From the NCBI GenBank assembly GCA_963699165.1, contig OY969413.1, positions 404,562 to 468,561 on the forward strand: a stretch of 64,000 nucleotides of DNA, read 5' to 3'. A program made the translations under genes and the position numbers. The notes beneath the pieces are model-generated. The model did not search any database. It was given only the letters and a program-made list of their open reading frames with translations, and had not been told where the DNA came from. Shown in pieces: positions 4,943-43,753 of this stretch; the stretch's first letter is position 1; each line of letters begins with the position of its first letter. The stretch is from Candidatus Kaiserbacteria bacterium (lineage in GTDB: Bacteria; Patescibacteriota; Minisyncoccia; Phycocordibacterales; Phycocordibacteraceae).

Positions 4943-5485
4943 GTGAGGACCATATCGAAACATTGGGAGGAAAAGTCCTTGCGGAAGACCATTGCTTCAT
5001 CGCAAAGTGTTCGTGAAGCCTTGCGGAAAATGGGGTTGCGCGGGGCGGGAGGAAACTACCGCTACTTTGAAATGTTTGTTGAAAAGTATCATATCGATAC
5101 CGGCCATTTCCTAGGAAAGGGTTGGAGCAAAAACAAAAGCATTTCGAAAGAACCTGTTCGCAGTCTTGAGGAAATACTTGTTCCAAACAGTTATTTTTCG
5201 ATTCACCAACTGAAGAAAAGACTGTTCAAGGCCGGGCTTAAAATTCCAAAATGCGAGGAGTGCGGTTGGGCGAAAAGGAGTGCGGACGGCCGAATCCCCA
5301 TCGAGATTGATCATGTGAATGGAGATCATTCGGATAATCGAATCGAGAATCTTCGCATACTTTGCCCCAACTGTCACAGTATGAAGCCCACTCATCGTGG
5401 TAAAAATAAAAAAGCTCGCCAAGGTGGCGGAATGGTAGACGCACCGCTCTTAAAATGCGGAGAGGAAATAAAAACCCTCATGTGA
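4943..5485 (+). CDS. HNH endonuclease (homing-endonuclease-like), low GC
   Basis: HNH motif IEIDHVNGDHSDNRIENLRILCPNCHS. GTG start. GC about 47% against about 59% in neighbours. The ORF 3' end reads into tRNA-Leu(UAA), so the true stop is uncertain. Confidence 0.7.
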   Translation: MRTISKHWEEKSLRKTIASSQSVREALRKMGLRGAGGNYRYFEMFVEKYHIDTGHFLGKGWSKNKSISKEPVRSLEEILVPNSYFSIHQLKKRLFKAGLKIPKCEECGWAKRSADGRIPIEIDHVNGDHSDNRIENLRILCPNCHSMKPTHRGKNKKARQGGGMVDAPLLKCGEEIKTLM

Positions 5486-5506
5486 GTTCAAGTCTCACCC
5501 TTGGTA
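5418..5506 (+). tRNA. tRNA-Leu (TAA), type II with long variable arm
   Basis: Acceptor GCCAAGG/CCTTGGT, anticodon loop CTTAAAA (anticodon TAA), T-arm GTGAGTTCAAGTCTCAC, discriminator A. Long extra arm GAGG...CCTC. Confidence 0.65.
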
Positions 5507-5511
5507 CTGAA

Positions 5512-6858: not shown

Positions 6859-7779
6859 ATGGCAGGCACGCCCCCACCGACACCGCCGGCCGGAACGCCG
6901 CCGACACACCCCGGCATTGGGGTCCTTGAACGCCGTCTCGGAGTCAAGATGCCCGATTTTTTGTATCGCGCGTCTTCGTCGAAAGTCGGGTGTTTCTTGC
7001 TGTGGGCATTTTTTGCAATAGAGCTGTTTTACGTTGTGCAAGACATCGCCGGCGTAATCGGCAGAACATTGCATCACATCCGCAACCCAGGCGCGACCCC
7101 GGAAGCGCACGAGGCCCACGGACGGCTGTGGAAGATTTCGTCGTGGGTCGTGGTCGGGGCCGCAATCTTTGCGTGGTTGATGCTGCGACCAGCGCTCGAC
7201 GCGCATCCCTCTGGCGGGACGGTCGCAAATTGGTACGCGACCAACCCGCTCGTCGTTTCGCTTTTTTTCTTGCCGTTACTAGCAACAATGCTGCTAACGA
7301 CACGGAAGCTGTGGACCTCCGTTGGAGTGGCAGCATTGTTTACACTCCTGCCACTGCTGTTCGCCTTAATCGCGGCGCCGTTTGCTCCGGAGAGAGCGCC
7401 GAGTCCGGAGACCACAACTGCGCCGACCGATCATGCCAACGCGGCCCCATTTGCTCCGGAGAGAGCGCCGAGCCCGGAGACCACAGCTGCGCCGACCGAT
7501 CATGCCAGCAGTGCCAAAAAAACTTGCACCATCGCGACCCCGTGTACCGTAGATGTACCGGTTACCGGGGAGTCGAAACCCATCGTTCCCGTACCGGTCG
7601 GTTACCATCCATACTATCTGGCTCCAGCATCGAGCTACATGGAGCACAGAACGTATGATAAGGAGTCAGGCATGCCGGACTGCAAGGGAACGTGTCCTCC
7701 GGGTCCAGGGGGACAGACAACCTTGTTAAACAAGACAGCAGAGCCCCTGAAAATGGGGTACTACTTCTTGCCGAACTAA
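6859..7779 (+). CDS. Membrane protein with proline-rich N-terminus and an internal 20-aa tandem repeat (APFAPERAPSPETTxAPTDHA, two copies)
   Basis: 306-aa ORF with several TM segments; the true start may be the internal MPDFLY at about 6949. Cys-rich C-terminal tail. Confidence 0.5.
   Translation: MAGTPPPTPPAGTPPTHPGIGVLERRLGVKMPDFLYRASSSKVGCFLLWAFFAIELFYVVQDIAGVIGRTLHHIRNPGATPEAHEAHGRLWKISSWVVVGAAIFAWLMLRPALDAHPSGGTVANWYATNPLVVSLFFLPLLATMLLTTRKLWTSVGVAALFTLLPLLFALIAAPFAPERAPSPETTTAPTDHANAAPFAPERAPSPETTAAPTDHASSAKKTCTIATPCTVDVPVTGESKPIVPVPVGYHPYYLAPASSYMEHRTYDKESGMPDCKGTCPPGPGGQTTLLNKTAEPLKMGYYFLPN
7378..7497 (+). repeat. 60-bp tandem duplication (two copies, about 90% identical) inside the 6859..7779 CDS
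   Basis: gcgccgtttgctccggagagagcgccgagtccggagaccaca... repeated immediately afterwards; in-frame. Confidence 0.8.
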
Positions 7780-7857: not shown

Positions 7858-8133
7858 CTACTGTGAATTCGAGAGCGGAGCAATCGGCGGTAAACCGAAT
7901 GAATTGAGCGCGACGTTAATGATGCCGTACGCGCCGAAGATGATGACCAATCCGACAAGTCCCCACAAGATTGCCGAGCGGCCCTCGAGGCGACCTTTTT
8001 CATCGCCCGATTTGCGAATGAATTCAAACACGCCCCAAATGAAGACCACGAAAGCGACCGCGGACAGGAGCAGGATAATCGGGTCGATAACCTGCGTCAC
8101 TACTTTCGCGAGAAACGCTCTTAGAACGGTCAT
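7858..8133 (-). CDS. Small two-helix membrane protein, paralog 1 of 6 (VirB2/TrbC-pilin-like candidate)
   Basis: 91 aa; shared family motif ...VPxIxxxAFxxFxWG...(charged loop)...LWGxxGxxxxxSxWGLVN.... Its start overlaps the stop of paralog 2 (TAATG). Confidence 0.55.
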   Translation of the reverse strand: MTVLRAFLAKVVTQVIDPIILLLSAVAFVVFIWGVFEFIRKSGDEKGRLEGRSAILWGLVGLVIIFGAYGIINVALNSFGLPPIAPLSNSQ

Positions 8134-8510
8134 TAGCTGCCGACCTGAACGCCCGCCTTCGGCAGACCGGTTGACGGCCCAGTATTATTCCCGAAAGAAA
8201 TAGTGCCCGTGAGAATGTTCACGAGACCCCAGATGGAGACCATGACGAAGAACCCGATAAGGCCCCAGAGCATGAGATTCTTCCCCTCCTCGCGCTTATC
8301 TTCTTTGCCGGCTCCCAAAATGAACGTCACGAAGACGCCCCAAAGGAAGACAATGAACGCAATCGCAAAGATAACCGGAACGATTATGTTATTGATGGTA
8401 TTGATAATGAACGAGCCGACATCGGACACGTTGTTAATCTGGGCAAACGAGACGAGCGGCAATGCAAACAACGCGAGCGTACCTGAAGTAAGAGCAAGTG
8501 CTTTTTTCAT
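8133..8510 (-). CDS. Small two-helix membrane protein, paralog 2 (signal peptide MKKALALTSGTLALFALPLVSFA)
   Basis: Internal ATG at 8510 yields a 125-aa protein with a signal peptide plus the family core (IIVPVIFAIAFIVFLWG...LMLWGLIGFFVMVSIWGLVNIL). Confidence 0.55.
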   Translation of the reverse strand: MKKALALTSGTLALFALPLVSFAQINNVSDVGSFIINTINNIIVPVIFAIAFIVFLWGVFVTFILGAGKEDKREEGKNLMLWGLIGFFVMVSIWGLVNILTGTISFGNNTGPSTGLPKAGVQVGS

Positions 8511-8591
8511 AATGAAGATAAGTGGGTAACGGGATAATTGTAACGTCTTTGAAACGTCGGTCAATACACCGACGCACAATATGTGGATATG

Positions 8592-8894
8592 CTACAAAGT
8601 CGGCGGCTTTGGAGCGGTGGTGTTGGCGCTTGATGGAATCAGCGTGCTTTGAGCCATGTTCACCAACCCCCATACGGAAATCATGATAACAAAACCGATT
8701 ATGCCCCAGAGAGCGAATTGATGTCCTTCTTTTCTTTTCGACTCGTCGCCGCCCGAGAAAATATAGGCGCGAGCGATTCCGAACAAAAACATGAGGAATG
8801 CAATCGCGATTATGAGCGGAACAAGGTATGAATTGATGATTGTGATAACGCCGGAAGGACCGGTCGTATAGGATTGAATGAAAGAGAGGTTCAT
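8592..8894 (-). CDS. Small two-helix membrane protein, paralog 3
   Basis: Starts MNLSFIQSY; core LVPLIIAIAFLMFLFG...FALWGIIGFVIMISVWGLVNM. Confidence 0.55.
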   Translation of the reverse strand: MNLSFIQSYTTGPSGVITIINSYLVPLIIAIAFLMFLFGIARAYIFSGGDESKRKEGHQFALWGIIGFVIMISVWGLVNMAQSTLIPSSANTTAPKPPTL

Positions 8895-8907
8895 GGGGAT
8901 TGAAATG

Positions 8908-9312
8908 CTATTGGCACGCGTACATCGGATTCCCGTTTGCGTCGGAGCCGGTTCGCACGCACGAGCCGGTGGCACAGCCGCCGCCGCATCCGGCACCGAC
9001 GCCGGAACTGCTTACGGGACTAAGCGGCAAGGTTACCGACTGTCCCTGCAATCCGAACGTATTCGCGATTACATTCACAAGGCCCCAGAGTGAAATCATA
9101 ACTGCAAAACCGACTATTCCCCACAAAACGAGCCGATGCCCTTCTTCGATTTTTCCGGAATCGCCGCGGGAGAAGATGTATGCCTCCGCGATTCCGTACA
9201 GAAATACCAGGAACGCCGCAGCAAAAATGAGCGGCACTAGTACATAATTAATAATCCAAATAAACTGTTGCGCGATGCAGGCGATACCGACGGACGAGCT
9301 GCAAGTTGGCAT
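8908..9312 (-). CDS. Small two-helix membrane protein, paralog 4, with Cys/Gly-rich C-terminal tail
   Basis: Core LVPLIFAAAFLVFLYG...LVLWGIVGFAVMISLWGLVNV; tail GAGCGGGCATGSCVRTGSDANGNPMYACQ. Confidence 0.55.
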   Translation of the reverse strand: MPTCSSSVGIACIAQQFIWIINYVLVPLIFAAAFLVFLYGIAEAYIFSRGDSGKIEEGHRLVLWGIVGFAVMISLWGLVNVIANTFGLQGQSVTLPLSPVSSSGVGAGCGGGCATGSCVRTGSDANGNPMYACQ

Positions 9313-9329
9313 GGGCTCAGTATATCAAG

Positions 9330-9587
9330 CTATTGCGCCGGGGCGATGCCGAGTGTGGATAAAAGCATATTAACCAATCCCCATACCGAGAGAAGAACGA
9401 CGAGGCCGAGAATGCCCCATAGCGCGAATTGTCTGCCGCTCGCCCGCGCCTTTTCATCATTTCCATGAAGGAAAAAGTAATCCTGAAGACCCCAGATAAA
9501 TGCGGCAAATGCCAACGCAAAAATGACCGGCACGACGACGGTGCTTAAGACGCTCACGACGCTGGTCACAAATTGGGCGAACGTCAT
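9330..9587 (-). CDS. Small two-helix membrane protein, paralog 5
   Basis: Internal start MTFAQFVTSVV; core VVPVIFALAFAAFIWG...FALWGILGLVVLLSVWGLVNM. Confidence 0.55.
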   Translation of the reverse strand: MTFAQFVTSVVSVLSTVVVPVIFALAFAAFIWGLQDYFFLHGNDEKARASGRQFALWGILGLVVLLSVWGLVNMLLSTLGIAPAQ

Positions 9588-9588
9588 G

Positions 9589-10170
9589 TTAACTGCCCGT
9601 CGATAGCGCCTGCGCGGTCGCCTGGATGCCAAGGGCTATTCCCTGCGCGCCAAGCAAAATGAGCGCGCCGATGACCGTCCAGAGAAGCGCGTTTCTTGCT
9701 TGAGACAGCTTTGAGTCATTCCCTTGCGCCGTGACAAAGAGAAAACCGACATACACGAGCATCAAAACGACGATTATTGAACCGATTTGCACGACAAAAC
9801 CGAGAATGCTGGTCAATAACGAATTGAGGGTCGTGCCTGTCCCGAGCGGATTGGTGAGGGTGACAGTCGGAGCGGTATATCCTGATCCGCCTGAACCACC
9901 CGTGTTGCCTGATCCGCTTGAACCACCCGTGTTGCCTGATCCGCTTGAACCACCCGTACCGGATTGCCCACCGGAACCCCCCGTTCCTTGCGATGCGCAA
10001 ATCCCATTTGTGCAAACGCCGGATTCGCAATCAGATCCGAGAGTACACGTTGAACCGTCAGGCGAACCGAACCCTCCGCCCGTTTGTGCAAACACAACCG
10101 CGGGTACCGTATTACCGACGATTGCGAGATTCAAAAGAAAAAAAGATAGGACGACTATTTTTAATTTCAT
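9589..10170 (-). CDS. Paralog 6: signal peptide + Cys-rich + Gly/Ser-repeat N-terminal extension fused to the family two-helix core
   Basis: 193 aa: MKLKIVVLSFFLLNLAIVG..., CTLGSDCESGVCTNGICAS, (GGSSGSGNT)n, then ...VVLMLVYVGFLFV...ALLWTVIGALILLGAQGIALG. Its start overlaps the stop of the upstream solute-binding-like gene (ATGA). Confidence 0.55.
   Translation of the reverse strand: MKLKIVVLSFFLLNLAIVGNTVPAVVFAQTGGGFGSPDGSTCTLGSDCESGVCTNGICASQGTGGSGGQSGTGGSSGSGNTGGSSGSGNTGGSGGSGYTAPTVTLTNPLGTGTTLNSLLTSILGFVVQIGSIIVVLMLVYVGFLFVTAQGNDSKLSQARNALLWTVIGALILLGAQGIALGIQATAQALSTGS
9840..9962 (-). repeat. 27-bp tandem repeat, about three copies, encoding GSSGSGNTG units in paralog 6
   Basis: cctgatccgc(t/c)tgaaccacccgtgttg repeated three times on the plus strand. 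Confidence 0.7.
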
Positions 10171-11471
10171 TGTTGCAGAAGAGAGTTCAACGCGCTCTCG
10201 GCGTTTGCGAGCGCGGCTTGTAATGTTAAGCGTCCGCTTATCACATTTCCAATCATACCCGAGAAAACGGTGTCTATGTCGGTCGGCGCTGGGGACAGCC
10301 AGCCCTTCGCGTAAAGCGCCTCTGTGTATGCGACCGCCGCAGTCGGGTCGGAAGGAGCGGTTGAGAGCTGCGACAACGTGGCTGGCGCAAGACCGGTCGC
10401 GCCCGCTGCCGCGCTTTGTTCGGCCGAATTCGTGAATAGCACGGCGGCTTGATATGCGCCGGAAGCGTTTTTCGCGCCGCGCGGAATCATAAAGGCATAC
10501 AATAGGCCATAAGTGCTCTTTCCCGTCGCGGTCGCGGGCTGCGGCAACGGCGAGACCTGGAAATCAAGATTCGGATTTGCGGCGGCAAAGTACTGCGCTT
10601 CGGAGGCATATCCGATATAGAGCGCGAGGTCGCCGTTAAGAAATGCCTGCTGCGAATCGGGCAGCGAAGAATTCCAAGTGTATGAGACCTTTGACGGATC
10701 GGCGAATTGCGTGTAAAAACCGACGACCGCCTGCCCGGGTGAATTTGCATCGTTTGACGAAATGCCGAGGTCCGCGGAAAGCGCGCCGCCGGAAGAGTAT
10801 GCGGTTACCGGAACGCTCGTCTGCAAAAAGAGCGCCGACAGTATTCCGCGCGCGTCATGCACGTTGTCATAGGTGCCAAGAGCGATAAGCCCGCGCGTAA
10901 TCTGGTGCGACGACGTTAACACCGCAATGGAAGGCACGAGTCCGGTCAGCGATTCCCATGTCGAAGGCGGCGTTGCGATGCCGTTGCTCGAAAGCACGGA
11001 ACGGTTCGAAAAGAGCTCAAGCGGATCGACGAGAAACGGAACGCCGTAATAGCCGGCGCCTCCCGGCACTGCGAACAGATTTCCTTCTTCGATAAACGTG
11101 TTCGTAAAGGCCCGCGCGGGAAGCGTCGCCGTCGGTATCGGCGAAATAAATTTCTCGAGCGGACGCAGCTCCTCCTGCGAGGCGAGTACGAGGTCGGGAG
11201 CATCGCCGGTCGCAATGGCCGCGGCAAGGTCGGCTTGAAGCGTGGCGGGATTTTTCTGCACATAGCTCACGGTTTTTAGGCCTGCTTCGGTCTGCCCGAT
11301 GGTAACGAGAGCGCGCTGAATATCCGTGCTCGGCAGAGTTCCCCATATGAGAACGCTGCCTACGGTGGACGTTCCGGATGTGCTTTTATGCGTTGCGAAC
11401 ACAAAAAGGCCGATGAGCGCGGCAACGCCGAACACGCTGAACAACATTATCTGGAAAATGGAAAGTTTCAT
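10167..11471 (-). CDS. N-terminally anchored extracellular solute-binding-protein-like protein (ABC SBP family-1-like)
   Basis: 434 aa with an N-terminal TM/signal. Motifs reminiscent of SBP_bac_1 (LIWGTLP, GDAPDLV, YGVPFLVDPLELFSN, PSTWESL). Translationally coupled on both sides. Confidence 0.45.
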   Translation of the reverse strand: MKLSIFQIMLFSVFGVAALIGLFVFATHKSTSGTSTVGSVLIWGTLPSTDIQRALVTIGQTEAGLKTVSYVQKNPATLQADLAAAIATGDAPDLVLASQEELRPLEKFISPIPTATLPARAFTNTFIEEGNLFAVPGGAGYYGVPFLVDPLELFSNRSVLSSNGIATPPSTWESLTGLVPSIAVLTSSHQITRGLIALGTYDNVHDARGILSALFLQTSVPVTAYSSGGALSADLGISSNDANSPGQAVVGFYTQFADPSKVSYTWNSSLPDSQQAFLNGDLALYIGYASEAQYFAAANPNLDFQVSPLPQPATATGKSTYGLLYAFMIPRGAKNASGAYQAAVLFTNSAEQSAAAGATGLAPATLSQLSTAPSDPTAAVAYTEALYAKGWLSPAPTDIDTVFSGMIGNVISGRLTLQAALANAESALNSLLQQ

Positions 11472-12004
11472 GGCGAAGTGAAAATGAGGCCGTAATGGTG
11501 CGGACCGGCTCGAAAGGAGCGAACTTTATGGAAACCGCCGTTGATGAAAAACTCCTCCGCTTCGTGCTCGGGAACAACGCGTTTTTGTTCGGGACCCATG
11601 CCTTTGTAACTTCCCGCCCAGTCGACAACCATGAGTTTCCCGCCCGGTTTCAAGACGCGCTTGATTTCGGCGAGCGTGCCGAAACGATTCTCGACCTGGA
11701 AAAGCGTGTTGGCGAGAATGACCGCATCGAGAGACGCATCGCGCAAATGCGTACCGCCCGCCTTCTCGATATCCCCCCAGCGCACGTCGATGATGCGTTG
11801 ATGATGCTCCTGCGTGCCGAGCTTTTGATGTTTTAGTATATCCTCCTGTATGTCGATGGCATACACTTTTCCGCTGGGTCCGACGATGCCGGCCGCCGCG
11901 CGCGCATAATGGCCCGTACCGGCGCCGAAATCGCCGACTTTCATGCCTTCGCGCAAACCGAGTTGCAGGACGTTTTCCTGCGGATTACTAAAGGATGCGG
12001 ACAT
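11468..12004 (-). CDS. Class I SAM-dependent methyltransferase
   Basis: Motif I VGDFGAGTGHYA and post-I acidic residue (YAIDIQED). Internal ATG at 12004; the ORF-track extension is rejected. Confidence 0.7.
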   Translation of the reverse strand: MSASFSNPQENVLQLGLREGMKVGDFGAGTGHYARAAAGIVGPSGKVYAIDIQEDILKHQKLGTQEHHQRIIDVRWGDIEKAGGTHLRDASLDAVILANTLFQVENRFGTLAEIKRVLKPGGKLMVVDWAGSYKGMGPEQKRVVPEHEAEEFFINGGFHKVRSFRAGPHHYGLIFTSP

Positions 12005-12077
12005 GCGTATAAAATAGCATGTGCGGCCCGCTGCGGGCCGCACAATCAACACCGACACGGCTAACGTGAGTTGGCGC

Positions 12078-12302
12078 TTAAGCTGACGGAATCCACCAGA
12101 GCGACGACCGACTGACTCGCTTCCCGCGAACATGCCCTCTTAAAGAAAGCGCGAACAGTAACCAATACACCTCATTGCTGTTCCGACCCAACTGCTTGGC
12201 TATTTCCCGGGTCGTAGCGAAGCCGTCTAGATCCGTCAGCGCATCCATGACATCCTTTTTGCAAGAAATACTCTTTATGATTCTTGTTATGATTCTTGGC
12301 AC
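12078..12302 (-). CDS. Small putative winged-helix/HTH DNA-binding protein
   Basis: 74-aa ORF; TTREIAKQLGRNSNEVYWLLFAL resembles an HTH recognition region. First gene of the minus-strand operon downstream of gyrA. Confidence 0.3.
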   Translation of the reverse strand: MPRIITRIIKSISCKKDVMDALTDLDGFATTREIAKQLGRNSNEVYWLLFALSLRGHVRGKRVSRSSLWWIPSA

Positions 12303-19299: not shown

Positions 19300-21624
19300 T
19301 TAAAATTCCGAAAAACCTGTCGTCGAGACATTCACCACGAGCGGTACGTTGATAGTGTTGTTGAGAATGTCGGTGCACTTAAACAGGAATGCCGTTTGCG
19401 AGACGAGGCCATTCACCGCATAGGTACCCGATGTCGCGGAACCGCTCACGACTGGTGCCAAGACCGCGGTTCCATTTTTGTAAAGTGTGCAGCTTTGAAC
19501 CAACGTGGCCGCATACGAGAGCGTCGTATTGCCCCCGAGCGGCACGCGGGTATTCGTCGCGGTGAGTGAAATGGTCGGCTGGATAACGGTGATTGTCGGG
19601 AACGGCGGTATGGGGAAGGTATCGCAGGTCAGCCCGAAAGAATACGTTCCGGCCGTACCAAAGGGCCCGACCGTAGTATCGGAGCCGCTTGTTTGCCCCC
19701 CGGTCGAAAATCCATAGGAATTTGAGGTCTGGGTGCAGGAACTGGCGTTGCTGCATGTCCAGGTGAGCGTATCCGTATCGCCGACCTTGATACTCGATTT
19801 GCTCACGGAAATTGTGCAAGCCGGGGCGGGAGCGCAGCTATTTGTGACCGGATTAAACACGAGCGACGACGTGCATTTGTTGCAGCCGCTTGTCGGATTG
19901 GTCGCGCCGTTTGAACATTCGGAACAGGAGGCAGAGCTTCCGCCGCCGCTTCCGGCACAAGTCCATGTATAGAGCGGGGGTACGAACTGATTTGCACCTG
20001 ATGTACCGGGTGCGCAGTTGTAGTGAGTGGAGGCACAGACGCCGTTAACTGCGGCAGCGCATTTATTCCCGTCCCAGCTGCTACCCGAGGCGCAGTTGCC
20101 CGAAATGAGTACGCTGCCGAGCACGTTGCCACCGCTGTCTTTGAGAACAAGCGTTACGGGACTATAGACGCCGGTATCCGTCTGCGAGCCGTTTATTCCG
20201 GTCCACAGTGTTCCACCGCCCTGCTGAACAACGGACGCACTCGGCGTGTTTGACGTATTCCATGAGACGGTTACCGGACACCCGCTTTGTCCCGCTGCGA
20301 CAGTGCAAGGATTCGGGGATGCCGTGATGATGCCGGTGGGTGCGGCAGGCGGGCCGTTCACCGTAAAGCTGCTAACTGTCCATGCCGGCTGGTACGACAT
20401 TGCCGAATTAGCGCAAAGTGATCGTATGTTGTGCACACCGGGAGACAAACCGGTCACGTTCCACGTTCCGGAGGTGAAATATCCGGGACTGGTAGGACCG
20501 CCGTATCCCGAAATGTCTACAAAACCGTTGCCGTCATTTTTGTCGATGTTGACGTTGCAGTAGTATGCTGCGGCCGAGGAAGTGAGTTTAATCGTAGCAG
20601 TTCCTGTTGTCCCGCCTCCCGTGTTGTATAGGACGGGGTTTGGGGACTCTGTAACCGAAGATGTCGGAAGCGGGCAGCTCGAATCCGAAGGCGTGCTCGC
20701 GGAACACGTTCCATCGCACTGAACAGTGCCCGTATTCGTTTGTCCGCAGGCGTTGGCGGCGGAGGTGCAGGCATTTCCGTAGCCGGAAGGATTGGCGGGC
20801 GTGCTCGCGGAACATGCGCCATTACACTGAATGGTGCCCGAGTTCGTTTGGCCGCAGGAATTTGCGGCAGAGGTGCAGGCATTTCCGTAGCCGGAAGGAT
20901 TGGCGGGCGTGCTCGCGGAACATGCGCCATTACACTGAATGGTGCCCGAGTTCGTTTGTCCGCAGGCGTTGGCGGCGGAGGTGCAGGCATTTCCGTAGCC
21001 GGAAGGATTGGCGGGCGTGCTCGCGGAACACGTTCCATCGCACTGAACAGTGCCCGTATTCGTTTGGCCGCAGGAATTTGCGGCAGAGGTGCAGGCATTT
21101 CCGTAGCCGGAAGGATTGGCGGGCGTGCTCGCGGAACACGTTCCATCGCACTGAACAGTGCCCGTATTCGTTTGGCCGCAGGAATTTGCGGCAGAGGTGC
21201 AGGTGCTGCCGTTGCCGGCAGCGCATGCCACGGTGATATTTGCAGAGCAGACGGCCCGCTGTTGCTGAGATAGTCCCGTAATTGTCACCCATGGACCCGT
21301 ATACGTTACTGTACCCGTTTGAGTCGGACACGCTATTCCTGTGGCGCCAAAGTCATAGTTTGCACACAGATTCCCTATGGTAAAAGTGGTCCATGTACCT
21401 CCTGTGTATTGACCGGTGCCGCTGACTTTCACGGAAATCGATTGCCCATAGCTCACGGTCTGTGAAGGTGAAACGGTAATGGAACAGAAAGGTAATATAC
21501 ATGGTTGCAGCCCGCAATTACTATAGGCCACTGCACGATTTGCACCAACCGCTAAAGAAGAAAAAGCGAATAAAACAGAAAGGAGAACGATAAGGTTCCC
21601 TCGAGACCGCATACTCTGATTCAT
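19300..21624 (-). CDS. Large secreted Cys-rich repeat protein (adhesin-like), about 775 aa
   Basis: Signal peptide MNQSMRSRGNLIVLLSVLFAFSSLAVGA, five to six near-identical 36-aa repeats (CSASTPANPSGYGNACTSAANSCGQTNTGTVQCDGT), then further Cys-rich Ig/PKD-like modules. Confidence 0.65.
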   Translation of the reverse strand: MNQSMRSRGNLIVLLSVLFAFSSLAVGANRAVAYSNCGLQPCILPFCSITVSPSQTVSYGQSISVKVSGTGQYTGGTWTTFTIGNLCANYDFGATGIACPTQTGTVTYTGPWVTITGLSQQQRAVCSANITVACAAGNGSTCTSAANSCGQTNTGTVQCDGTCSASTPANPSGYGNACTSAANSCGQTNTGTVQCDGTCSASTPANPSGYGNACTSAANACGQTNSGTIQCNGACSASTPANPSGYGNACTSAANSCGQTNSGTIQCNGACSASTPANPSGYGNACTSAANACGQTNTGTVQCDGTCSASTPSDSSCPLPTSSVTESPNPVLYNTGGGTTGTATIKLTSSAAAYYCNVNIDKNDGNGFVDISGYGGPTSPGYFTSGTWNVTGLSPGVHNIRSLCANSAMSYQPAWTVSSFTVNGPPAAPTGIITASPNPCTVAAGQSGCPVTVSWNTSNTPSASVVQQGGGTLWTGINGSQTDTGVYSPVTLVLKDSGGNVLGSVLISGNCASGSSWDGNKCAAAVNGVCASTHYNCAPGTSGANQFVPPLYTWTCAGSGGGSSASCSECSNGATNPTSGCNKCTSSLVFNPVTNSCAPAPACTISVSKSSIKVGDTDTLTWTCSNASSCTQTSNSYGFSTGGQTSGSDTTVGPFGTAGTYSFGLTCDTFPIPPFPTITVIQPTISLTATNTRVPLGGNTTLSYAATLVQSCTLYKNGTAVLAPVVSGSATSGTYAVNGLVSQTAFLFKCTDILNNTINVPLVVNVSTTGFSEF
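20660..21250 (-). repeat. 108-bp tandem repeat, about 5.5 near-identical copies, inside the 19300..21624 CDS
   Basis: Periodicity is visible directly in the DNA (gcaggcatttccgtagccggaaggattggcgggcgtgctcgcggaaca...). The repeats generate the opposite-strand shadow ORFs 20661..21236, 20740..21273 and 20517..21146. Confidence 0.85.
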
Positions 21625-22355: not shown

Positions 22356-22385
22356 AGTATACTGCACAGGTATGTTATTTGTCAA
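22356..22385 (-). promoter_or_regulatory. Near-consensus sigma70 promoter TTGACA-18-TATACT for the 21803..22300 gene
   Basis: Minus strand reads cgggcTTGACAaataacatacctgtgcagTATACTtggg. IS copy 1 ends 5 bp upstream of the -35 box. Confidence 0.5.
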
Positions 22386-23425
22386 GCCCGTGTACGCGTC
22401 CAGTACTTTTGGCAGTCCCCGACGGTTAATGTACACACAATATACCGCAAGGGGGACACCATGCCGAGCGACTGGTGCGGGCGTTTGGTGTTGTACCAAA
22501 TCAGCCAGTCGACAAGCTTCAGATTGAAGGAATGAATATCGTCCCGCAGCAGGCCCCGATTCAGCATGATGAAGTCCTCGGAGACGGTGCGATTGAATCG
22601 TTCGACGTGGGCATTCATCTTGGGAGTGCGGGGGCGGGTGTGAAAGTGCGTGAGCCCGAGTTCGGCACAGGCATCCTCGAAGTGTTTGGCGAACTCGCTC
22701 CCGTTGTCGGTCTGCAACTCGTCGATATCGAAGGGGCAAACCTCGATGACTCGGCGAAGGAAGTCGTCCGCGCTTCTCGACGAGTGGTTCGTATACGCGC
22801 CCGCAAAGGCGAACTTCCGCTCCACGTCCACTGCCGTGAGGACGTACCGCTTCACGCCGTCGATGAAGCGGACGACGGTATCGAGCTCCATGCCGCGCTT
22901 GCCGGTGCGGCGAAGCTTGGTACGGCGTTTCTGCGGTGTTTCCGTGTGATTGCCCGTACGTGCGTGGAACGAGAGCCGGCTCTGCTGCGGGAGCAGACCG
23001 CGGTTCTTCAAATCCAGAATGACCCGCCCAACGTATGACTCCGACACGGAGTACCCTTCTTCGCGCAGGAGAACGGCAAGCTTTGCTTTCCCAAGCCGGG
23101 GATGCGCCTGTCGTTCGCGGATGATGAAATCCTCGACCTCGGGCAGAACAGTCCTCCTTCGACGCGCCTTCGGCGCAGTGCTCTTCGGGTCAAGTGCATC
23201 AATGCGGCCCTCGTGGGCTTTGAGTTCCTCCTTCCAGCGATACAAGGTGCGCTCCGAGGTGCCAAAGGCGTCGTATGCGGCCTCCGTCCCGTGCATGTCC
23301 CAGAATCCCAATATCTTCACCCGTCTGTCGACTTCCTTTGGTTTCCGCATATGCCGCAATCGTATCGTCCTTTCCCACATGCTCAACCAGCCCTTCGTAC
23401 CCCTGAAATTGCTTCTGATGTGCAT
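22382..23425 (-). CDS. IS481-family DDE transposase (rve integrase core), copy 1
   Basis: N-terminal HTH (GTSERTLYRWKEEL) plus integrase core with TAVDVERK, DNGSEF and HVERFNRT motifs (D, D, E). The stop codon lies 2-3 codons beyond the IS end. Confidence 0.85.
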   Translation of the reverse strand: MHIRSNFRGTKGWLSMWERTIRLRHMRKPKEVDRRVKILGFWDMHGTEAAYDAFGTSERTLYRWKEELKAHEGRIDALDPKSTAPKARRRRTVLPEVEDFIIRERQAHPRLGKAKLAVLLREEGYSVSESYVGRVILDLKNRGLLPQQSRLSFHARTGNHTETPQKRRTKLRRTGKRGMELDTVVRFIDGVKRYVLTAVDVERKFAFAGAYTNHSSRSADDFLRRVIEVCPFDIDELQTDNGSEFAKHFEDACAELGLTHFHTRPRTPKMNAHVERFNRTVSEDFIMLNRGLLRDDIHSFNLKLVDWLIWYNTKRPHQSLGMVSPLRYIVCTLTVGDCQKYWTRTRA

Positions 23426-23470
23426 ATATCCTCGGTTATGAGGACTGCCAAATGTATCTGAACTTATGCA
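22391..23470 (-). mobile_element. IS481-like insertion sequence, copy 1 (1080 bp); ends TGCATAAGTT...GCGTACA; about 28-bp imperfect inverted repeats; 5-bp TSD GCCCG
   Basis: Near-identical (1-2 SNPs) to 31601..32680 and 42639..43718. TSD gcccg at 22386-22390 and 23471-23475. Confidence 0.85.
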
Positions 23471-23475
23471 GCCCG

Positions 23476-23503
23476 TGTACGCGATCGGGACATTTAGCAG
23501 CCC
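23476..23503 (+). repeat. Degenerate solo terminal inverted repeat of the same IS family, abutting the TSD of copy 1
   Basis: tgtacgcgatcgggacatttagcagccc versus IRR TGTACGCGTCCAGTACTTTTGGCAGTCC. Its outer end faces copy 1 across the 5-bp gcccg. Confidence 0.45.
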
Positions 23504-23534
23504 GCGACGGACGTAATGCCGATAGAGCTCGCCA

Positions 23535-23583
23535 GGAGTTTCGCGCCGGCACTTGGGAAGGTCTGACCTTCCCAAGTGCCGGC
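23535..23583 (+). terminator. Long GC-rich hairpin plus T-run (intrinsic terminator-like) between the IS relic and uppP
   Basis: gccgg(g)cacttgggaaggtc-TGA-ccttcccaagtgccggc followed by gCTTTTTc. The stem core CTTGGGAAGG/CCTTCCCAAG recurs at 60356-60380. Confidence 0.5.
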
Positions 23584-23625
23584 GCTTTTTCAAAATCTAG
23601 CTTTCGGCCGTGATACCATGTCGCC

Positions 23626-25000: not shown

Positions 25001-26158
25001 ATGACTTTTGATCTTGCGGTAAATATTCTTGCACTTCTTTTCACGTTCTTCATTGCGGGAACGTTGCTCGGCGCCCTGTTCTTTAAACCGGTCCGCGAAA
25101 AGCTGGCGCGGATTTTTCGCATAAAAAAACGCCTCGCTCTTTCGCGAAGCACGCACAATCCGATTTTGAAACCCGACGCCGTCAGTCCTTGGAAAGCCGA
25201 ATCCGTGATGAATCCGGCCGCAATTGTGCTGAAAGGCCGAACACATCTTATTTTCCGCGCGGTCGGCTCGGACGGCGTTTCGCGGCTCGGTTATGCGAGC
25301 AGTCCGGACGGTTTTATTTTTGACGAACAACTTCCCTACCCAATCTACGCGGCACGAACCCCGGGCGGCACGCCGACGCGTGAGCGGCGCTACTCGCCGG
25401 TGCTCTACCCATCGGGCGGCAGCTGGGGCGGGTGCGAAGACCCGCGGATGGTCGCCATCGACGGCCGCGTATATGTGACATTCAACACGTTCATGAACTG
25501 GAACATGAGCGTCAGCGTGATTTGGTTTAGCGAAGAAGATTTCCTCGCGAAACAATTCCATAAATTGGAAGGACCGTATGTTATCGCGAACTCTCCGCGC
25601 GAGAAGAACTGGATGCTATTCCCGGAAAAGATTAATGGTCACGTCGCCGTTTTAATCGGCATCATAGACGAAGATGAGTCCCGCGTGCGTGTGGAATATA
25701 CCGATGACTTGACCACCCTCTCGCGGGCGACTTTCAAAACCATTGACCCGCAGAAAGTGCCGGATAGGCCCATCGCCTGGCATGTGCATGTGCGGAGCGC
25801 CGGGCCACCGCCAATCAAGACCGACCGCGGTTGGCTCGTTTTCTATCATGCACACGATGCGGCAGAACCAAGTCGCTATAAACTCGGCGCAATGCTGCTC
25901 GACCTCAACGACCCATCAAAAGTTCTTCATCGAAGCATTTGTCCCGTCCTTTCTCCGGACGAGTCATACGAAAATGACGGGAAACCGGGCATCGTGTACG
26001 CATGCGGTGCCACCGTCCAAAATGGGACACTCTATGTGTACTACGGCGGCGCGGACAAGGTTGCATGCGTCGCGACCGCGCCTCTGGATGATTTTCTCGA
26101 CGCACTTATCTCCGGCACCGAAATCGCGCTTGAATCGGAACCGTTACATGCCCCGTAA
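25001..26158 (+). CDS. Membrane-anchored GH130-family glycoside phosphorylase/hydrolase (beta-mannoside-acting family)
   Basis: N-terminal TM, then NPILKP...NPAAIV..FRAVGSDGVSRLGYASSPDG and GGCEDPRM, the GH130/PF04041 hallmark; five-bladed-propeller-like repeats. Confidence 0.7.
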   Translation: MTFDLAVNILALLFTFFIAGTLLGALFFKPVREKLARIFRIKKRLALSRSTHNPILKPDAVSPWKAESVMNPAAIVLKGRTHLIFRAVGSDGVSRLGYASSPDGFIFDEQLPYPIYAARTPGGTPTRERRYSPVLYPSGGSWGGCEDPRMVAIDGRVYVTFNTFMNWNMSVSVIWFSEEDFLAKQFHKLEGPYVIANSPREKNWMLFPEKINGHVAVLIGIIDEDESRVRVEYTDDLTTLSRATFKTIDPQKVPDRPIAWHVHVRSAGPPPIKTDRGWLVFYHAHDAAEPSRYKLGAMLLDLNDPSKVLHRSICPVLSPDESYENDGKPGIVYACGATVQNGTLYVYYGGADKVACVATAPLDDFLDALISGTEIALESEPLHAP

Positions 26159-26166: not shown

Positions 26167-27276
26167 ATGGATTCTCAATCAACCCCCAGTCCCGAGCCGA
26201 TCGACGAAGTTATCGCGCCGTCGCAATTTGAATTTTTAGCATCGAAACCGAGCGTTGCCGCATACCGCCAGCACGAGGGCAGAGTCATCGGAGGCGACGC
26301 CCGCTTCAAGTATTTCATGGCGGTGACGCTCGACCCGCGAACGAACAATCGAAGCGGCATTGTCCGCTGTATTATGAGCCGCGACGGCGATGTCGCGGTC
26401 GAGGGATACGTTGACAGGAGCGAATTGCATCGCATCGACGGCGAGTCGCTCGAGCAGTTCGCCGTCGGCGATGAAATCGTCATCCGAAACAGCTCGGAAA
26501 TCATCTTCGGTCTCACCAAAGGAGACGAGGCGTGGGATTTCCTCGGTTTTGAAGACCCGGACATTTGGATAGACCCCGACACGCAGCTGCTGCATCTGTA
26601 TTTTACGATTCCTTTCAAACATCGGAATTCCGAGTTCGCGATTTGTCTCGGACACGCCGTGGGTCAGGATGTGGACTCGCTCGTCATGACGCAGCCGGCG
26701 CTGCTTCCGAAACAACTCGGCGGCCGCGGCAACGGCGCGAAAGAAGTGTCCATTGCTCCGAAGAATTCGCGCGGAGTGCATCTGAATCTTATCGAGTCGG
26801 CTGCCGGAGGGTTTGAGGGCGATTCGGCATCGGTTGCGCAAATCGCCGCCGCGAACGACATGGGCGGCGTGTGGGAATACGGAGACGTCGTTTTCAACCC
26901 GCTTGCGGAACGCATTGCGTGGATTGCGGGACACGCATCGCCCGGACCGCTGCTTCCCCGCTCGTTTATCGACATCGGCGAAGGAAAAGCGGTCGGCATC
27001 ATGAACGGCCGCGAGGCAAATCGCCGCGAAGGCGAATCGGTTTTGTACGGAACGTTTTCCGTAGGGCTCTTTATATACGATTACGAGAACGGAGCCATCG
27101 ACTGGGTTTCGCCGGAGCCGCTCATTCGCGACAGCGAGGCGCGAACGATAACCTTTGCGAGCCAGTTCGTCGAGGCCGTTCCGGGCCAAGAAGGCATTCT
27201 CTATGCACACGTCGACGACTCGTTCGTGCGCGCGTACACGCTGTATGCCGAAGGCATTCGCTCGCTTCTACCATAA
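26167..27276 (+). CDS. Divergent GH130-like beta-propeller glycosidase-related protein
   Basis: 369 aa; carries FEDPDIW in place of CEDPR. Sits between two clear GH130 genes in the same orientation. Confidence 0.5.
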   Translation: MDSQSTPSPEPIDEVIAPSQFEFLASKPSVAAYRQHEGRVIGGDARFKYFMAVTLDPRTNNRSGIVRCIMSRDGDVAVEGYVDRSELHRIDGESLEQFAVGDEIVIRNSSEIIFGLTKGDEAWDFLGFEDPDIWIDPDTQLLHLYFTIPFKHRNSEFAICLGHAVGQDVDSLVMTQPALLPKQLGGRGNGAKEVSIAPKNSRGVHLNLIESAAGGFEGDSASVAQIAAANDMGGVWEYGDVVFNPLAERIAWIAGHASPGPLLPRSFIDIGEGKAVGIMNGREANRREGESVLYGTFSVGLFIYDYENGAIDWVSPEPLIRDSEARTITFASQFVEAVPGQEGILYAHVDDSFVRAYTLYAEGIRSLLP

Positions 27277-27281
27277 CTGCC

Positions 27282-29276
27282 ATGTTTGTCATTCGCCGAG
27301 AACCCCATAATCCAATCCTCACGCCGCGCCGCGAGCATTTGTGGGAATCGCTTTCCACTTTTAATCCGTCCGTGGTGCGCACCAAAGAAGGCGTGCGCCT
27401 GTACTATCGCGCCTTTGGAAATCAAAATGCGCTCCATACGCCGATTGAAGGCCTTTCGAGCATCGGCACCGCTTTTTCCGAAGACGGCGTGTTTTTTCAT
27501 TCGCGAAAACAAGTTGTCGCGCCGCAGGAATCGTGGGACGCGTTCGGATGCGAAGACCCGCGCGTCACCTTCTTCGAAGGCCGTTGGTACTGTTTTTACA
27601 CCGCGCTCGGCGGCTACCCGTTCGGTCCCGAAAACATCAAAGTCGCCCTTGCCATCGGCAACGAACCGGAAAATCTCACCGAGCGGCATCTCATAACGCC
27701 GTTTAATGCGAAAGCGGCGACATTGTTCCCCGAGCGCATCGATGGCGACATCGTGATGCTGCTTACAGCGCATACCGATTGGACGAGCGAACATCCGCGG
27801 CCGACGATTGCGCTCGCGCGGGCGAAACACATCGAGGACTTTTTCGATCCCGGCTTTTGGCAGGAGTGGCACGACCACCTTCCCGACCACGCGCTTTCGG
27901 AATTGCGCCGAAACGACGCCGACCATATCGAGGTGGGCGCATCGCCGCTTTTGACCGACAAAGGATGGCTGCTCGTCTATTCGTACATTCAAAATTATTA
28001 TGACGAGCATAAACGCACATTCTCGGTCGAAGCGGCGCTGCTTGATGAAAAAGATCCGAGAAAGCTCACTTCGCGCACCGAGTCGATGTTTGTGCCGGAA
28101 GAAATTTACGAAGAATACGGTCTCGTGCCGCACATCGTCTTCCCGACGAGCATTTCGCTCGACGAAAACGGAATGCTGGATATTTGGTATGGCGCAGCCG
28201 ACACCGTATGCGCGAAAGCCAGCGTGCGTCTCGCCGACCTATTGCGCTCGCTGAACCCGGAAAAACCCGCGCGCACGTTCATCCGGGCCGCGCAAAATCC
28301 GATTTTAGCTCCGCAAGGCAGCGGATTTGAAAGCCGCGACGTCTTTAATCCGGCAGCCGTTGACGTGGACGGCAAGGTGCACATTTTGTACCGGGCGATG
28401 GATGCGGCAAACACTTCGACCATCGGTCTGGCGATTTCGAAAGACGGGGTAACAATCGACGAACGTCTGCCGGAACCCGTGTACGTGCCGCGCGCCGACT
28501 TCGAGATGAAGCTCGGAAATCCGACCGGAAATTCCGGTTGCGAAGACCCGCGCATCGTCCGCATCGGCGATACGCTTTACATGACCTACACCGCTTACGA
28601 TGGCGTACATGCGCCTGCGGGAGCCGTTTCTTCGATTTCAGTTGACGATTTTCTCGCCCGCCGGTTTGAAAAATGGAGCAAGCCGTTTTTGATTACTCCC
28701 GAGGGCATCGATGATAAGGACCTTACGTTTTTCCCGGAAAAAATAAATGGGAATTTTCTGCTCTATCATCGCATAAGCAATCAGATTTGCGCCGACCCCT
28801 TCGCCGAGCTTGCTCCCGGCATTCGCGCTAAGCGCTGCATCGATGTGATGGGGCCTCGCCACGGCATGTGGGACGGTACGAAAGTCGGCAGCGCGGCGCC
28901 GCCGATTAAAGTCGGCGAAAACTGGCTTGTGATTTATCACGGCGTCTCGCGCCACGCGACCTACCGCCTCGGCGCCGCGCTGCTCGACCCGTCCGGCCTT
29001 TCGGTACTCGCGCGCACGGCCGATGCCATTTTTGAACCGCTAGAATCGTATGAAAAAGTTGGCGAGGTGCCGAATGTCGTCTTTGCATGCGGCGCCGTTG
29101 TCCGCGATGACACGCTCTTCCTCTACTACGGCGGCGCGGACAAAGTCATCGGTGTCGCGACGGGCTCGGTCGCGCACATTATCGATGCGCTTACGTCGTC
29201 CGGCAACCGAGATTCGGCAAGTTTGAGACCGTCGGAGCCGGTGCGGCAGGACTTTGCCGCGTTTGCGACACACTGA
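27282..29276 (+). CDS. Tandem-domain GH130 protein (two complete GH130 modules fused, 664 aa)
   Basis: Module 1 HNPILTP...FGCEDPRVTFFEGRWYCFYTA; module 2 QNPILAP...GNSGCEDPRIVRIGDTLYMTYTAYDG. True start ATG at 27282; the ORF-track start at 26871 is rejected because it overlaps the previous gene. Confidence 0.75.
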   Translation: MFVIRREPHNPILTPRREHLWESLSTFNPSVVRTKEGVRLYYRAFGNQNALHTPIEGLSSIGTAFSEDGVFFHSRKQVVAPQESWDAFGCEDPRVTFFEGRWYCFYTALGGYPFGPENIKVALAIGNEPENLTERHLITPFNAKAATLFPERIDGDIVMLLTAHTDWTSEHPRPTIALARAKHIEDFFDPGFWQEWHDHLPDHALSELRRNDADHIEVGASPLLTDKGWLLVYSYIQNYYDEHKRTFSVEAALLDEKDPRKLTSRTESMFVPEEIYEEYGLVPHIVFPTSISLDENGMLDIWYGAADTVCAKASVRLADLLRSLNPEKPARTFIRAAQNPILAPQGSGFESRDVFNPAAVDVDGKVHILYRAMDAANTSTIGLAISKDGVTIDERLPEPVYVPRADFEMKLGNPTGNSGCEDPRIVRIGDTLYMTYTAYDGVHAPAGAVSSISVDDFLARRFEKWSKPFLITPEGIDDKDLTFFPEKINGNFLLYHRISNQICADPFAELAPGIRAKRCIDVMGPRHGMWDGTKVGSAAPPIKVGENWLVIYHGVSRHATYRLGAALLDPSGLSVLARTADAIFEPLESYEKVGEVPNVVFACGAVVRDDTLFLYYGGADKVIGVATGSVAHIIDALTSSGNRDSASLRPSEPVRQDFAAFATH

Positions 29277-29286
29277 TGCGCCTGTC

Positions 29287-30030
29287 ATGCCCAAGCTGAT
29301 TTTTTTCGACCTCGACGGTACGCTTGCCGAAAGTAAGCAGCCGCTCGACGATGAGATGTCGGCACTGCTTGCAAAGCTTCTGACCCGCACGGATGCGGCG
29401 GTTATTTCCGGCGGACTCCTTTCGCAATTTCTCAAGCAGGTTGTCGGGCGGCTGCCGATTGAAGCCGATTTCGGGCGCTTGCATCTGCTGCCGACATCCG
29501 GCGCGGCACTTTATGAGTGGCACAATGACGAGTGGAAAAAAATATACGAGGAGCGCTTGTCGGACAAAGACGCATTCCACATTCAGGACGTGATGCAGTC
29601 GGCTGCGGAAGAAACCGGCATTATTGATTTTGCACAGCCGTCTTGGGGCGAGCGCATAGAAAACCGCGGGAGCCAAGTCACGCTTTCGGCGCTTGGCCAG
29701 CTCGCGCCGATTGCCGAGAAAAAGAAGTGGGACCCTGACCACGCAAAACGGCGAATACTGCTGGAGAAAATGGCGGCTCTCTTGCCCGATTTTTTGGTAA
29801 GCATCGGCGGCTCGACGAGCATCGACATCACAAAGCGCGGCATCGACAAAGCATACGGCGTCCACAAACTCTGCGACCGGCTCGGCGTGAAAGAGCAGGA
29901 TGCGCTCTACGTCGGCGACGAACTGCAGTCGGGCGGCAATGACGAGGCGGTATACAAGACCGACATTCAAACAAAACCCGTAAAAAATCCGCAGGATACG
30001 AAACGAATTATCGAGAAACTGCTCGCGTGA
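29287..30030 (+). CDS. HAD-superfamily phosphomannomutase (eukaryotic PMM type, PF03332-like)
   Basis: HAD motif I FFDLDGTL; C-terminal SIGGSTSIDITKRGIDKAYGVH...YVGDELQSGGNDEAV aligns with the human PMM2 region [20 protein letters not shown]...FFGDKTMPGGNDHEIF. Confidence 0.7.
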   Translation: MPKLIFFDLDGTLAESKQPLDDEMSALLAKLLTRTDAAVISGGLLSQFLKQVVGRLPIEADFGRLHLLPTSGAALYEWHNDEWKKIYEERLSDKDAFHIQDVMQSAAEETGIIDFAQPSWGERIENRGSQVTLSALGQLAPIAEKKKWDPDHAKRRILLEKMAALLPDFLVSIGGSTSIDITKRGIDKAYGVHKLCDRLGVKEQDALYVGDELQSGGNDEAVYKTDIQTKPVKNPQDTKRIIEKLLA

Positions 30031-31582: not shown

Positions 31583-31600
31583 ATTTTGCACAGCAAAAAA

Positions 31601-43718: not shown

Positions 43719-43753
43719 TTCATCCGGCGTGCAGGCTGTGATAAACTTTGAGA

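Follow-up and report, generated by a model that had tools for sequence, protein, structure and literature searches.

What is the function of six tandem genes for small membrane proteins in a reduced-genome member of Candidatus Kaiserbacteria, within the Paceibacteria (Patescibacteria), and do their products act together with those of the two genes that precede them? The genes lie in a 64-kb window of contig OY969413.1 (the whole stretch analyzed, whose coordinates are used throughout). They are co-directional, encode two-helix membrane proteins, span 7858-10170 on the minus strand (-), and are located 3' of genes for a solute-binding-fold protein and a methyltransferase, both also on the minus strand. 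With moderate confidence, we interpret the six proteins as pilin subunits of a type IV secretion system (T4SS)-like apparatus that is encoded elsewhere in the genome, and the binding-fold protein as their accessory partner. Any specific role for that partner is proposed with much less confidence than the overall interpretation.

Six members of a VirB2-like pilin family

All six proteins match the Pfam family PF18895 (T4SS_pilin), five at or above the gathering score of 26.6 bits (27.7-45.5 bits) and one, at position 3 of the array, at 25.9 bits. Orthologues from all six positions, position 3 included, also match this family (30/30 at E<=0.01). Judged by profile similarity, six adjacent matches to one Pfam family is not a chance pattern, and we show by these searches that the proteins belong to the VirB2-like T4SS pilin family. 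The pilin reading proposed in the first-pass annotation is thereby borne out, as it is by a match of position 1 to the TrbC/VirB2 family (PF04956). This is the only PF04956 match among the six window proteins and it falls under the gathering score (21.4-23.8 versus 27.9 bits). Five of the 30 orthologues match PF04956 at E<=0.01 (best E=1.5e-7), all of them from position 1 as judged by input order, and position 1 is the most TrbC/VirB2-like member of the window array.

Each protein has two hydrophobic segments with a short charged loop between them (Kyte-Doolittle hydropathy and alignment). The six align at 21-34% pairwise identity, and the loop motifs and the LWGxxGxxxxxSxWGLVN block quoted in the first-pass annotation are common to all. 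Gram-negative VirB2/TrbC proteins are likewise small two-helix hairpins with a short charged loop, and the profile similarity of position 1 to them is weak but reproducible. The window proteins differ from these in scoring under the PF04956 cutoff, in that four of the six are leaderless, and in having no adjacent virB genes. In addition, the host is monoderm, and there are six different subunits versus one major pilin. Another point of comparison is the pilin-like conjugal transfer protein Mbov_0395, which is small, has two helices, and belongs to the monoderm T4SS of a Mycoplasma integrative and conjugative element (ICE). Its NCBIfam profile (NF045849) is matched only weakly by the six proteins, all of which score under the 40-bit cutoff (E=2e-7 to 1e-3, 18-30 bits), and they have no ICE context. 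A tblastn search of the position-1 core against plasmids returned no match.

A signal-peptide-like extra N-terminal segment occurs on positions 1 (9589-10170) and 5 (8133-8510) only, the two members to which the first-pass annotation had also assigned signal peptides (its paralogs 6 and 2). These calls were made from hydropathy and alignment. In positions 2, 3, 4, and 6, helix 1 begins 13-21 residues after the protein start.

Individual members are distinguished mainly by what flanks the hairpin. Position 1 (9589-10170 (-), 193 aa; PF18895 E=1.4e-7, PF04956 E=2.9e-4) consists of the signal peptide, a Cys-rich segment, GGSSGSGNT repeats, and the hairpin, an extension also seen in the first pass. 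The repeats are encoded by a 27-bp tandem repeat within the gene (9881-9957, no strand assigned; 2.9 copies, 98% matches, Tandem Repeats Finder score 147). Position 2 (9330-9587 (-), 85 aa; PF18895 E=2.2e-7) has no signal peptide, and its exact product is present in NCBI. Position 3 (8908-9312 (-), 134 aa) carries the Cys/Gly-rich C-terminal tail that had been described for paralog 4. For position 4 (8592-8894 (-), 100 aa; PF18895 E=2.2e-9) the longest open reading frame (ORF) reaches 8996, and the 100-aa product is the one in NCBI. Position 5 (8133-8510 (-), 125 aa; PF18895 E=7.8e-12), for which the longest ORF reaches 8579, has the conserved signal peptide MKKALALTSGTLALFALPLVSFAQ. Position 6 (7858-8133 (-), 91 aa; PF18895 E=3e-6, 27.7 bits) is without a signal peptide and is the final gene of the array. 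All six are labeled 'hypothetical protein' by NCBI.

Could these be two-transmembrane (TM) proteins of another kind, for example holins, bacteriocin-immunity proteins, or accessory subunits of transporters? The two-TM hairpin is generic, and a few orthologues have weak matches to DctQ and COX2_TM. Against this, none of the six has a match to holin or bacteriocin-immunity families in Pfam or NCBIfam at E<=0.1 (the first-pass annotation had named these families as the competing assignment), PF18895 is recovered consistently across the orthologues, and there is no phage or bacteriocin context among the ORFs scanned. We regard a non-pilin identity as extremely improbable.

A probable operon with a binding-fold protein and a methyltransferase

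Nine ORFs occur between 7858 and 12302, all on the minus strand, at the coordinates given by the first-pass annotation (ORF list). The methyltransferase, the binding protein, and the six pilins are tightly packed and are best explained as one operon downstream of gyrA. The methyltransferase stop overlaps the binding-protein start (ATGA, 11468-11471), the binding-protein stop overlaps the start of the first pilin (ATGA, 10167-10170), and the position-5 stop overlaps the position-6 start (TAATG at 8133); these junctions are as the first-pass annotation described them. The overlaps that join the methyltransferase, the binding protein, and the pilins imply co-translation. If translation begins at the likeliest ATG codons (9587, 8894, and 8510, the first of them 1 nt past the position-1 stop), the remaining pilin junctions are spacers of 1-81 nt. 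These starts agree with the NCBI calls (193/85/134/100/125/91 aa). The earlier wording 'fusion partners' does not apply to the window, where the methyltransferase, binding protein, and pilins are separate ORFs.

The binding protein (10167-11471 (-), 434 aa) has a maltose-binding-protein-like solute-binding fold and is anchored to the membrane. It matches SBP_bac_8 and SBP_bac_1 in Pfam (E=7e-21) and was assigned to the UgpB/MalE group by JGI annotators. Its single hydrophobic segment (residues 1-29) contains a TM helix at approximately residues 5-28 and is followed by a short Ser/Thr linker. An AlphaFold2 model based on a deep alignment has a predicted local distance difference test (pLDDT) score of 94; an earlier run on a shallow alignment (sequences ~70% identical) gave a pLDDT of 45 and was discarded. 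Foldseek places the model with maltose and oligosaccharide binding proteins (E ~2e-20, TM-score 0.6-0.73, ~17% identity). The closest PDB sequence matches are CUT1 sugar binders, the top one being 4r9f ('MBP1'), which we take to be a mannooligosaccharide-binding protein. With CUT1 proteins such as MalE, MnBP1 (4r9f), Atu4361 (4qsd), and 7bvt, the window protein shares the type II periplasmic-binding fold, the SBP_bac_1/8 match, and membrane tethering. Unlike these proteins, to those of which that are solved it is ~17% identical, it has the motif GFYTQFAD (residues 251-258), and in no locus examined are permease or ATPase genes adjacent to it; pilin genes are found instead.

The binding-protein family is large (2,739 representatives at 50% identity, E<=1e-30), and a GFYTQFA-type motif is invariant across it. 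Conserved W, Y, F, D, N, and Q positions would be compatible with solute binding in the cleft between the lobes. Together, the modeled fold and the conserved aromatic and acidic residues suggest that the protein may bind a glycan or a similar small ligand. The candidate explanation that the TM anchor is unusually conserved, as for intramembrane contacts, was rejected, as its entropy is 2.26 bits versus 2.04 for the remaining protein.

Two genes for GH130 beta-1,4-mannooligosaccharide phosphorylases and a PMM/HAD-type gene are encoded 15-20 kb from the cluster (25001-26158, 26871-29276, and 29254-30030, all on the plus strand (+)). Together with the similarity to 4r9f, the GH130 genes are a possible hint at the ligand class of the binding protein.

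One member of the 50%-identity library (P0358, 568 aa) joins the two families in one ORF, with a binding-protein domain at residues 1-431 and a PF18895 domain at 482-545. This is either a natural fusion or the result of a missed stop codon.

The methyltransferase (11468-12004 (-), 178 aa by the NCBI call) is a class I, S-adenosylmethionine (SAM)-dependent enzyme. It matches Methyltransf_31, 11, 25, 12, and 23 in Pfam (E=2e-17), fits a Rossmann-type SAM-binding profile, and is without a TM segment. The nearest solved structures to this generic class I enzyme are uncharacterized methyltransferases (PDB 3dh0, E=4e-18). The longest ORF would start at 12133, which is probably over-extended and wrong.

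The operon does not appear to extend to the ninth ORF (12078-12302 (-)), which the first-pass annotation had included as a coupled helix-turn-helix (HTH) gene. This doubtful, organism-specific small ORF has weak winged-helix similarity, with HTH matches in Pfam that are all below threshold (TrmB, E=0.004). No gene is called there in the public annotation, the product of the shorter version starting at ATG 12248 is absent from the protein collection searched, and the ORF has no counterpart in 94 related gaps between GyrA and the methyltransferase, which range from 66 to 2864 bp in length. It overlaps the methyltransferase only if the latter starts at 12133 and not at the annotated 12004. Moreover, a GC-rich, terminator-like hairpin (12044-12020 (-), terminator scan and sequence) separates it from the methyltransferase start. 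The hairpin has 11 pairs, nine of them G-C, followed by a T-rich tail, and lies 16 nt upstream of the ATG at 12004. Hairpins of <= -15 kcal/mol occur at the equivalent place in 74/94 relatives, a count made without a shuffle control. A role for the ORF as regulator of the operon was rejected, given the intervening hairpin and the lack of counterparts in the related gaps.

Conservation of the module and its relation to secretion systems

Does the association between pilins and binding protein persist in relatives? Using the binding protein as the probe, 72 species-representative loci and 80 metagenome loci were fetched, and their genes were annotated with a profile of the six window pilins. The metagenome loci are mostly close relatives and added little depth; relatives of the binding protein carry the labels Kaiserbacteria or Paceibacterota. 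All 101 loci that reach at least 2.8 kb past the binding protein have three or more pilins directly after it, and 85 of these loci have exactly six. When nine divergent loci are added to these 101 similarity-fetched ones, the binding protein is in every case followed by one to nine pilin genes. The linkage of the array to the binding-protein gene thus withstands the comparison with relatives that the first-pass annotation had suggested. GyrA is upstream in 60/64 loci.

The methyltransferase, whose co-occurrence had also been raised, is encoded by the gene directly preceding that of the binding protein in 119/121 related loci, usually with the ATGA overlap. It is missing from the neighborhood in several lineages.

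Orthology within the array is strictly positional. Across the window and 50 other species-level genomes, every pilin finds its best match in another genome at its own array position (51/51 at each of the six positions). Relative to their window orthologues, the pilins are 44-73% identical, the binding protein 66%, the methyltransferase 75%, and GyrA 85%. Position 4 is the least conserved pilin (median 44%) and position 5 the most conserved (median 73%), with its signal peptide kept in orthologues. By this measure of orthology, the six genes are old and non-interchangeable, not fast-turnover copies.

These patterns bear on the suggestion that such arrays supply interchangeable, fast-diversifying variants of a major pilin for antigenic or host-range variation, as proposed for Bartonella and Anaplasma and suggested for Patescibacteria (PMC12102498). 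The window array resembles the VirB2 arrays of those genera (cited in PMC12102498) in its tandem amplification of VirB2-like genes. Other features in keeping with variation are that the paralogues are only 21-34% identical, that copy number ranges from three to nine between lineages, and that positions 1, 3, and 4 have length-variable, Cys-rich or repeat-bearing extensions among relatives. The Bartonella and Anaplasma arrays are read as antigenic or host-range variants, whereas the positions of the window array are conserved and strictly orthologous in a fixed gene order. The strict positional orthology argues against a cassette for antigenic variation and for non-redundant subunits. In Southlakia epibionticum, moreover, six such genes are individually essential. 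Overall, we find the antigenic-variation explanation very doubtful.

The association with the binding protein extends well beyond close relatives. Binding-protein relatives at 23-46% identity (L069-L074 and more divergent loci) keep pilins directly downstream. Those at 23-30% identity, in Brennerbacteria, Jorgensenbacteria, other Paceibacteria, and ABY1/Falkowbacteria, have PF18895 genes in this place, and one divergent locus has nine pilins without the gyrA context. In five Paceibacteria loci from distant lineages (L158-L160, L163, and L164) the conserved order is S1, Lactamase_B_3, a small ORF, GyrA, binding protein, pilins, and an opposite-strand Band_7 gene. Three ABY1/Falkowbacteria loci also carry the module (L161 6001-13374, L165 4363-11112, and L166 4496-14552), with SMC, a ComM-like gene, the binding protein, one pilin, an HTH_25 protein (~220 aa), and the methyltransferase, followed by a 127-aa protein, UPF0102, an optional glycosyltransferase insert, and then the pilin array. 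Six pilins are present in the arrays of L165 and L166, the last of which is cut by the end of the L166 locus, and L161 ends after three. The ABY1 methyltransferase homologue is full length (33% identity, E=2e-32) in this different gene order, and its presence led us to reject the candidate explanation that the methyltransferase is a Kaiserbacteria-specific insertion. Neighborhoods that survive rearrangement across classes are the usual signature of functional coupling.

Array size varies from three to nine genes across lineages, and a count of six holds throughout the Kaiserbacteria-like clade but not everywhere. In deeper lineages the pilins are mostly of the position-1 (TrbC-like) type, and positions 2-5 are an expansion specific to the Kaiserbacteria-like clade. 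In one of the Paceibacteria loci (L160 8273-9304), the first gene past the binding protein encodes a 343-aa protein that matches Annexin in Pfam and, weakly, the pilin profile; it would be pilin-like with an unusual extracellular domain.

It is also conceivable that these genes share a neighborhood without sharing a function. The pilins would then serve a T4SS, the binding protein a distant ABC sugar importer, and the methyltransferase a housekeeping role, with all of them kept together by the stable gyrA-proximal block. The block of S1, Lactamase_B_3, GyrA, binding protein, and pilins is broadly syntenic in Paceibacteria, and inertia therefore contributes. Such an explanation would also account for a binding protein that keeps conserved aromatic and acidic residues and resembles the usual CUT1 oligosaccharide binders, for GH130 mannoside phosphorylases 15 kb off, and for lineages in which the methyltransferase is missing. 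However, the adjacency of binding protein and pilins outlasts the gyrA context (L161, L162, L165, and L166) and persists down to 23% identity, the start/stop overlaps imply co-translation, and the P0358 ORF fuses the two domains. Genes for CUT1 binding proteins normally adjoin their permease genes, but no permease gene is nearby here, and neither BPD_transp nor ABC_tran genes occur within 6-10 kb in any annotated locus. We therefore consider a purely positional association improbable.

How, then, do the pilins relate to a T4SS? The family has been surveyed in 3,035 Patescibacteria genomes with PF18895 and PF04956. VirB2-like pilins were found in 1,948 VirB4-containing assemblies but near virB4 in only 1,135, and 441 arrays of 2-11 pilin genes with ~25% mean identity were reported, with the suggestion that they might help in adapting to different hosts (PMC12102498). 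In S. epibionticum ML1, six consecutive PF18895 genes (SEML1_0014-0019), all essential by transposon sequencing (Tn-seq), adjoin VirB6-like, PrgI, and VirB4-like genes near dnaA (PMC10633639). A 2025 review points to this array as the first candidate for a pilus in a monoderm T4SS (PMC12857230). The two arrays are alike in Pfam family, in comprising six tandem, co-directional, divergent paralogues, in being chromosomal, and in that some members match TrbC/VirB2. They differ in that the S. epibionticum array sits in a T4SS locus, with no binding protein between the VirB6-like SEML1_0013 and the array or inside the array, whereas the window array is downstream of gyrA, after the methyltransferase and binding protein, and its positions 2-5 are a clade-specific expansion. 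The matching count of six is probably coincidental, because other lineages hold three to nine genes and positions 2-5 expanded locally.

The pilin family and its tandem arrays having been published (PMC12102498; PMC10633639), the array itself is not new. For this reason, and because VirB4 is listed elsewhere in the genome for 5/6 cluster-bearing relatives (Table S1 of PMC12102498), the earlier proposal of an undescribed, distinct filament system is not supported as stated. In the literature searched, no paper was found that ties a solute-binding protein to VirB2 pilins in Patescibacteria. Three features seem not to have been described before: that the array is coupled, at a site away from virB4, to a maltose-binding-type protein and often to a specific methyltransferase, that its orthology follows position strictly, and that this coupling reaches two classes.

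Several observations weigh against the assignment of the window pilins to a T4SS with a binding-fold partner. As the first-pass annotation had noted, VirB4, VirB6, and VirD4 are missing from the window, at least among the ORFs scanned (37 of those of at least 180 aa; the unscanned ORFs are a few others and those at 53236-60293, presumed from their size to be RpoB and RpoC). T4SS ATPase and channel genes were not found either when the search took in 10 kb past the start of the window and the 6-10 kb around the cluster in ~165 loci. Dependence of the pilins on a T4SS is thus inferred from the family name and the literature only. Four of the six proteins are without the long cleaved leader typical of VirB2/TrbC/TraA pilins, and the pilin profile has no match among PDB sequences even at E<=10. 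The evidence that pairs the binding protein with the pilins is solely gene neighborhood, and the membrane-tethered binding protein cannot be a distal tip adhesin. The absence of the methyltransferase from several lineages is a further difficulty. More generally, the role of the Patescibacteria T4SS has been called completely unknown, and no pilus has been seen in any Patescibacterium (PMC11665869).

Some of these observations would fit an envelope module that is independent of any T4SS, in which the binding-fold and two-helix proteins form a membrane or surface complex of their own. This could be a scaffold that holds binding proteins in the wall zone, analogous in its logic to the archaeal bindosome, which positions binding proteins, or a device for binding-protein-dependent uptake or for lipid or glycan handling. 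The methyltransferase would then modify cargo or a head group. In line with this, the module is self-contained and never beside T4SS genes in the loci examined, the link between binding protein and pilins is kept across two classes, and the methyltransferase homologue recurs in rearranged order. The joining of the two domains in the P0358 ORF is topologically compatible, most of the pilins are leaderless, and the UgpB/MalE assignment of the binding protein also fits. Set against these points are the sequence homology to VirB2/TrbC pilins, the location of the equivalent S. epibionticum array inside a T4SS locus, and the occurrence of VirB4 in most relatives checked; further, no known transporter is made of VirB2-like hairpins. 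On balance we judge T4SS independence unlikely, although it is the alternative to which we give most weight.

Under the T4SS pilin interpretation that we favor, the six proteins would span the membrane as hairpins whose two ends lie outside and whose short Lys/Arg/Glu loop faces the cytoplasm, the topology of VirB2. This orientation is proposed because the loop is the most positively charged segment and because the Cys-rich extensions (N-terminal on position 1, C-terminal on position 3) need an extracytoplasmic site for disulfides. Positions 1 and 5 would insert via cleavable signal peptides and the others probably as uncleaved hairpins. The six non-redundant subunits may form one heteromeric filament or conduit, with the variable extensions on positions 1, 3, and 4 as its surface-exposed parts. 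Assembly would be by a monoderm-type T4SS (VirB4, VirB6, PrgI/VirB3, and VirB8) encoded elsewhere in the genome. The binding protein would work with the pilins at the outer face of the membrane, either as a receptor for a ligand, probably a glycan, or as an assembly factor. We predict that it is a pilin partner and not part of an ABC importer because there are no transporter genes beside it and the link to pilins is kept across two classes. For the methyltransferase, taken to be cytoplasmic, the probable role is to modify some part of the system. Conjugative pilins often carry modifications and co-assemble with phospholipid, and post-translational modification of the pilin is usual in Gram-negative conjugative T4SS. 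On the grounds of this modification and co-assembly, the substrate could be a loop of the pilins or the head group of a lipid, although this is speculation.

Genomic surroundings and significance

The other scanned ORFs of the window are ordinary chromosomal genes, including GyrA, S1, primase, sigma-70, HisRS, a UvrD/AddA-type helicase, LexA, and insertion sequence (IS) copies. No relaxase was identified among them. Three ~1.09-kb IS copies that are 98-100% identical and encode an rve-type integrase (22375-23593 (-), 31586-32690 (+), and 42623-43961 (-)) occur, with an IS1595-family transposase (40949-41824 (+)), all within 20 kb. These are notable for a reduced genome of ~1 Mb and suggest recent IS activity.

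Two predicted proteins may be displayed or secreted. In a 747-aa protein (61664-63907 (-)), a GDSL lipase/acylhydrolase domain is joined to a Peptidase_S74 domain, an intramolecular chaperone as in phage tail-spike endosialidases; the protein may serve at the surface as an enzyme directed at the host envelope. A large protein encoded at 19300-20964 (-) is rich in Cys, contains repeats of ~35 aa (CGQTNSGTIQCNGACSASTPANPSGYGNACTSAAN), and has no match in Pfam. This is probably a secreted or surface protein, and its Cys-rich style resembles that of the N-terminal extension of the position-1 pilin. Convergent on the array is a 306-aa ORF (6859-7779 (+)) whose product has hydrophobic segments, a duplication of the segment APFAPERAPSPETTxAPTDHA, and a C terminus rich in Cys. 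It has no Pfam match and no counterpart in related loci, having been found in this organism only. Farther away, amid four tRNA genes, is an ORF with an HNH-endonuclease-like motif (4943-5485 (+)), read by eye with no profile match; its 3' end is overlapped by a predicted tRNA-Leu (5418-5507 (+)).

The family and the tandem organization of the array are already in Pfam and in two papers, so the array itself is no discovery. T4SS-like genes and a pilin array are essential in the sole genetically tractable Patescibacterium, where their role has been called completely unknown (PMC11665869), and Patescibacteria obtain lipids, nucleotides, and sugars from their hosts. We put forward, as an unlikely and tentative possibility, that the binding-fold protein, the methyltransferase, and the hairpins constitute an ancient, self-contained Patescibacteria module, present at least in Paceibacteria and ABY1, in which a maltose-binding-type receptor would be coupled mechanistically to a VirB2-type filament or conduit. 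If so, the essential 'T4SS pilins' of epibionts would serve in the capture or import of host molecules, or as a bindosome-like scaffold, and not in export or conjugation. The captured or imported molecule would be a glycan, a glycerophosphodiester, or a lipid head group.

The six-fold positional orthology argues for modeling such arrays as multi-subunit machines and not as cassettes for antigenic variation. In addition, a binding-fold protein that is locked to the pilins in the largest Patescibacteria class and in ABY1 offers a soluble, expressible handle on the system, and its ligand would tell what the system senses or moves.

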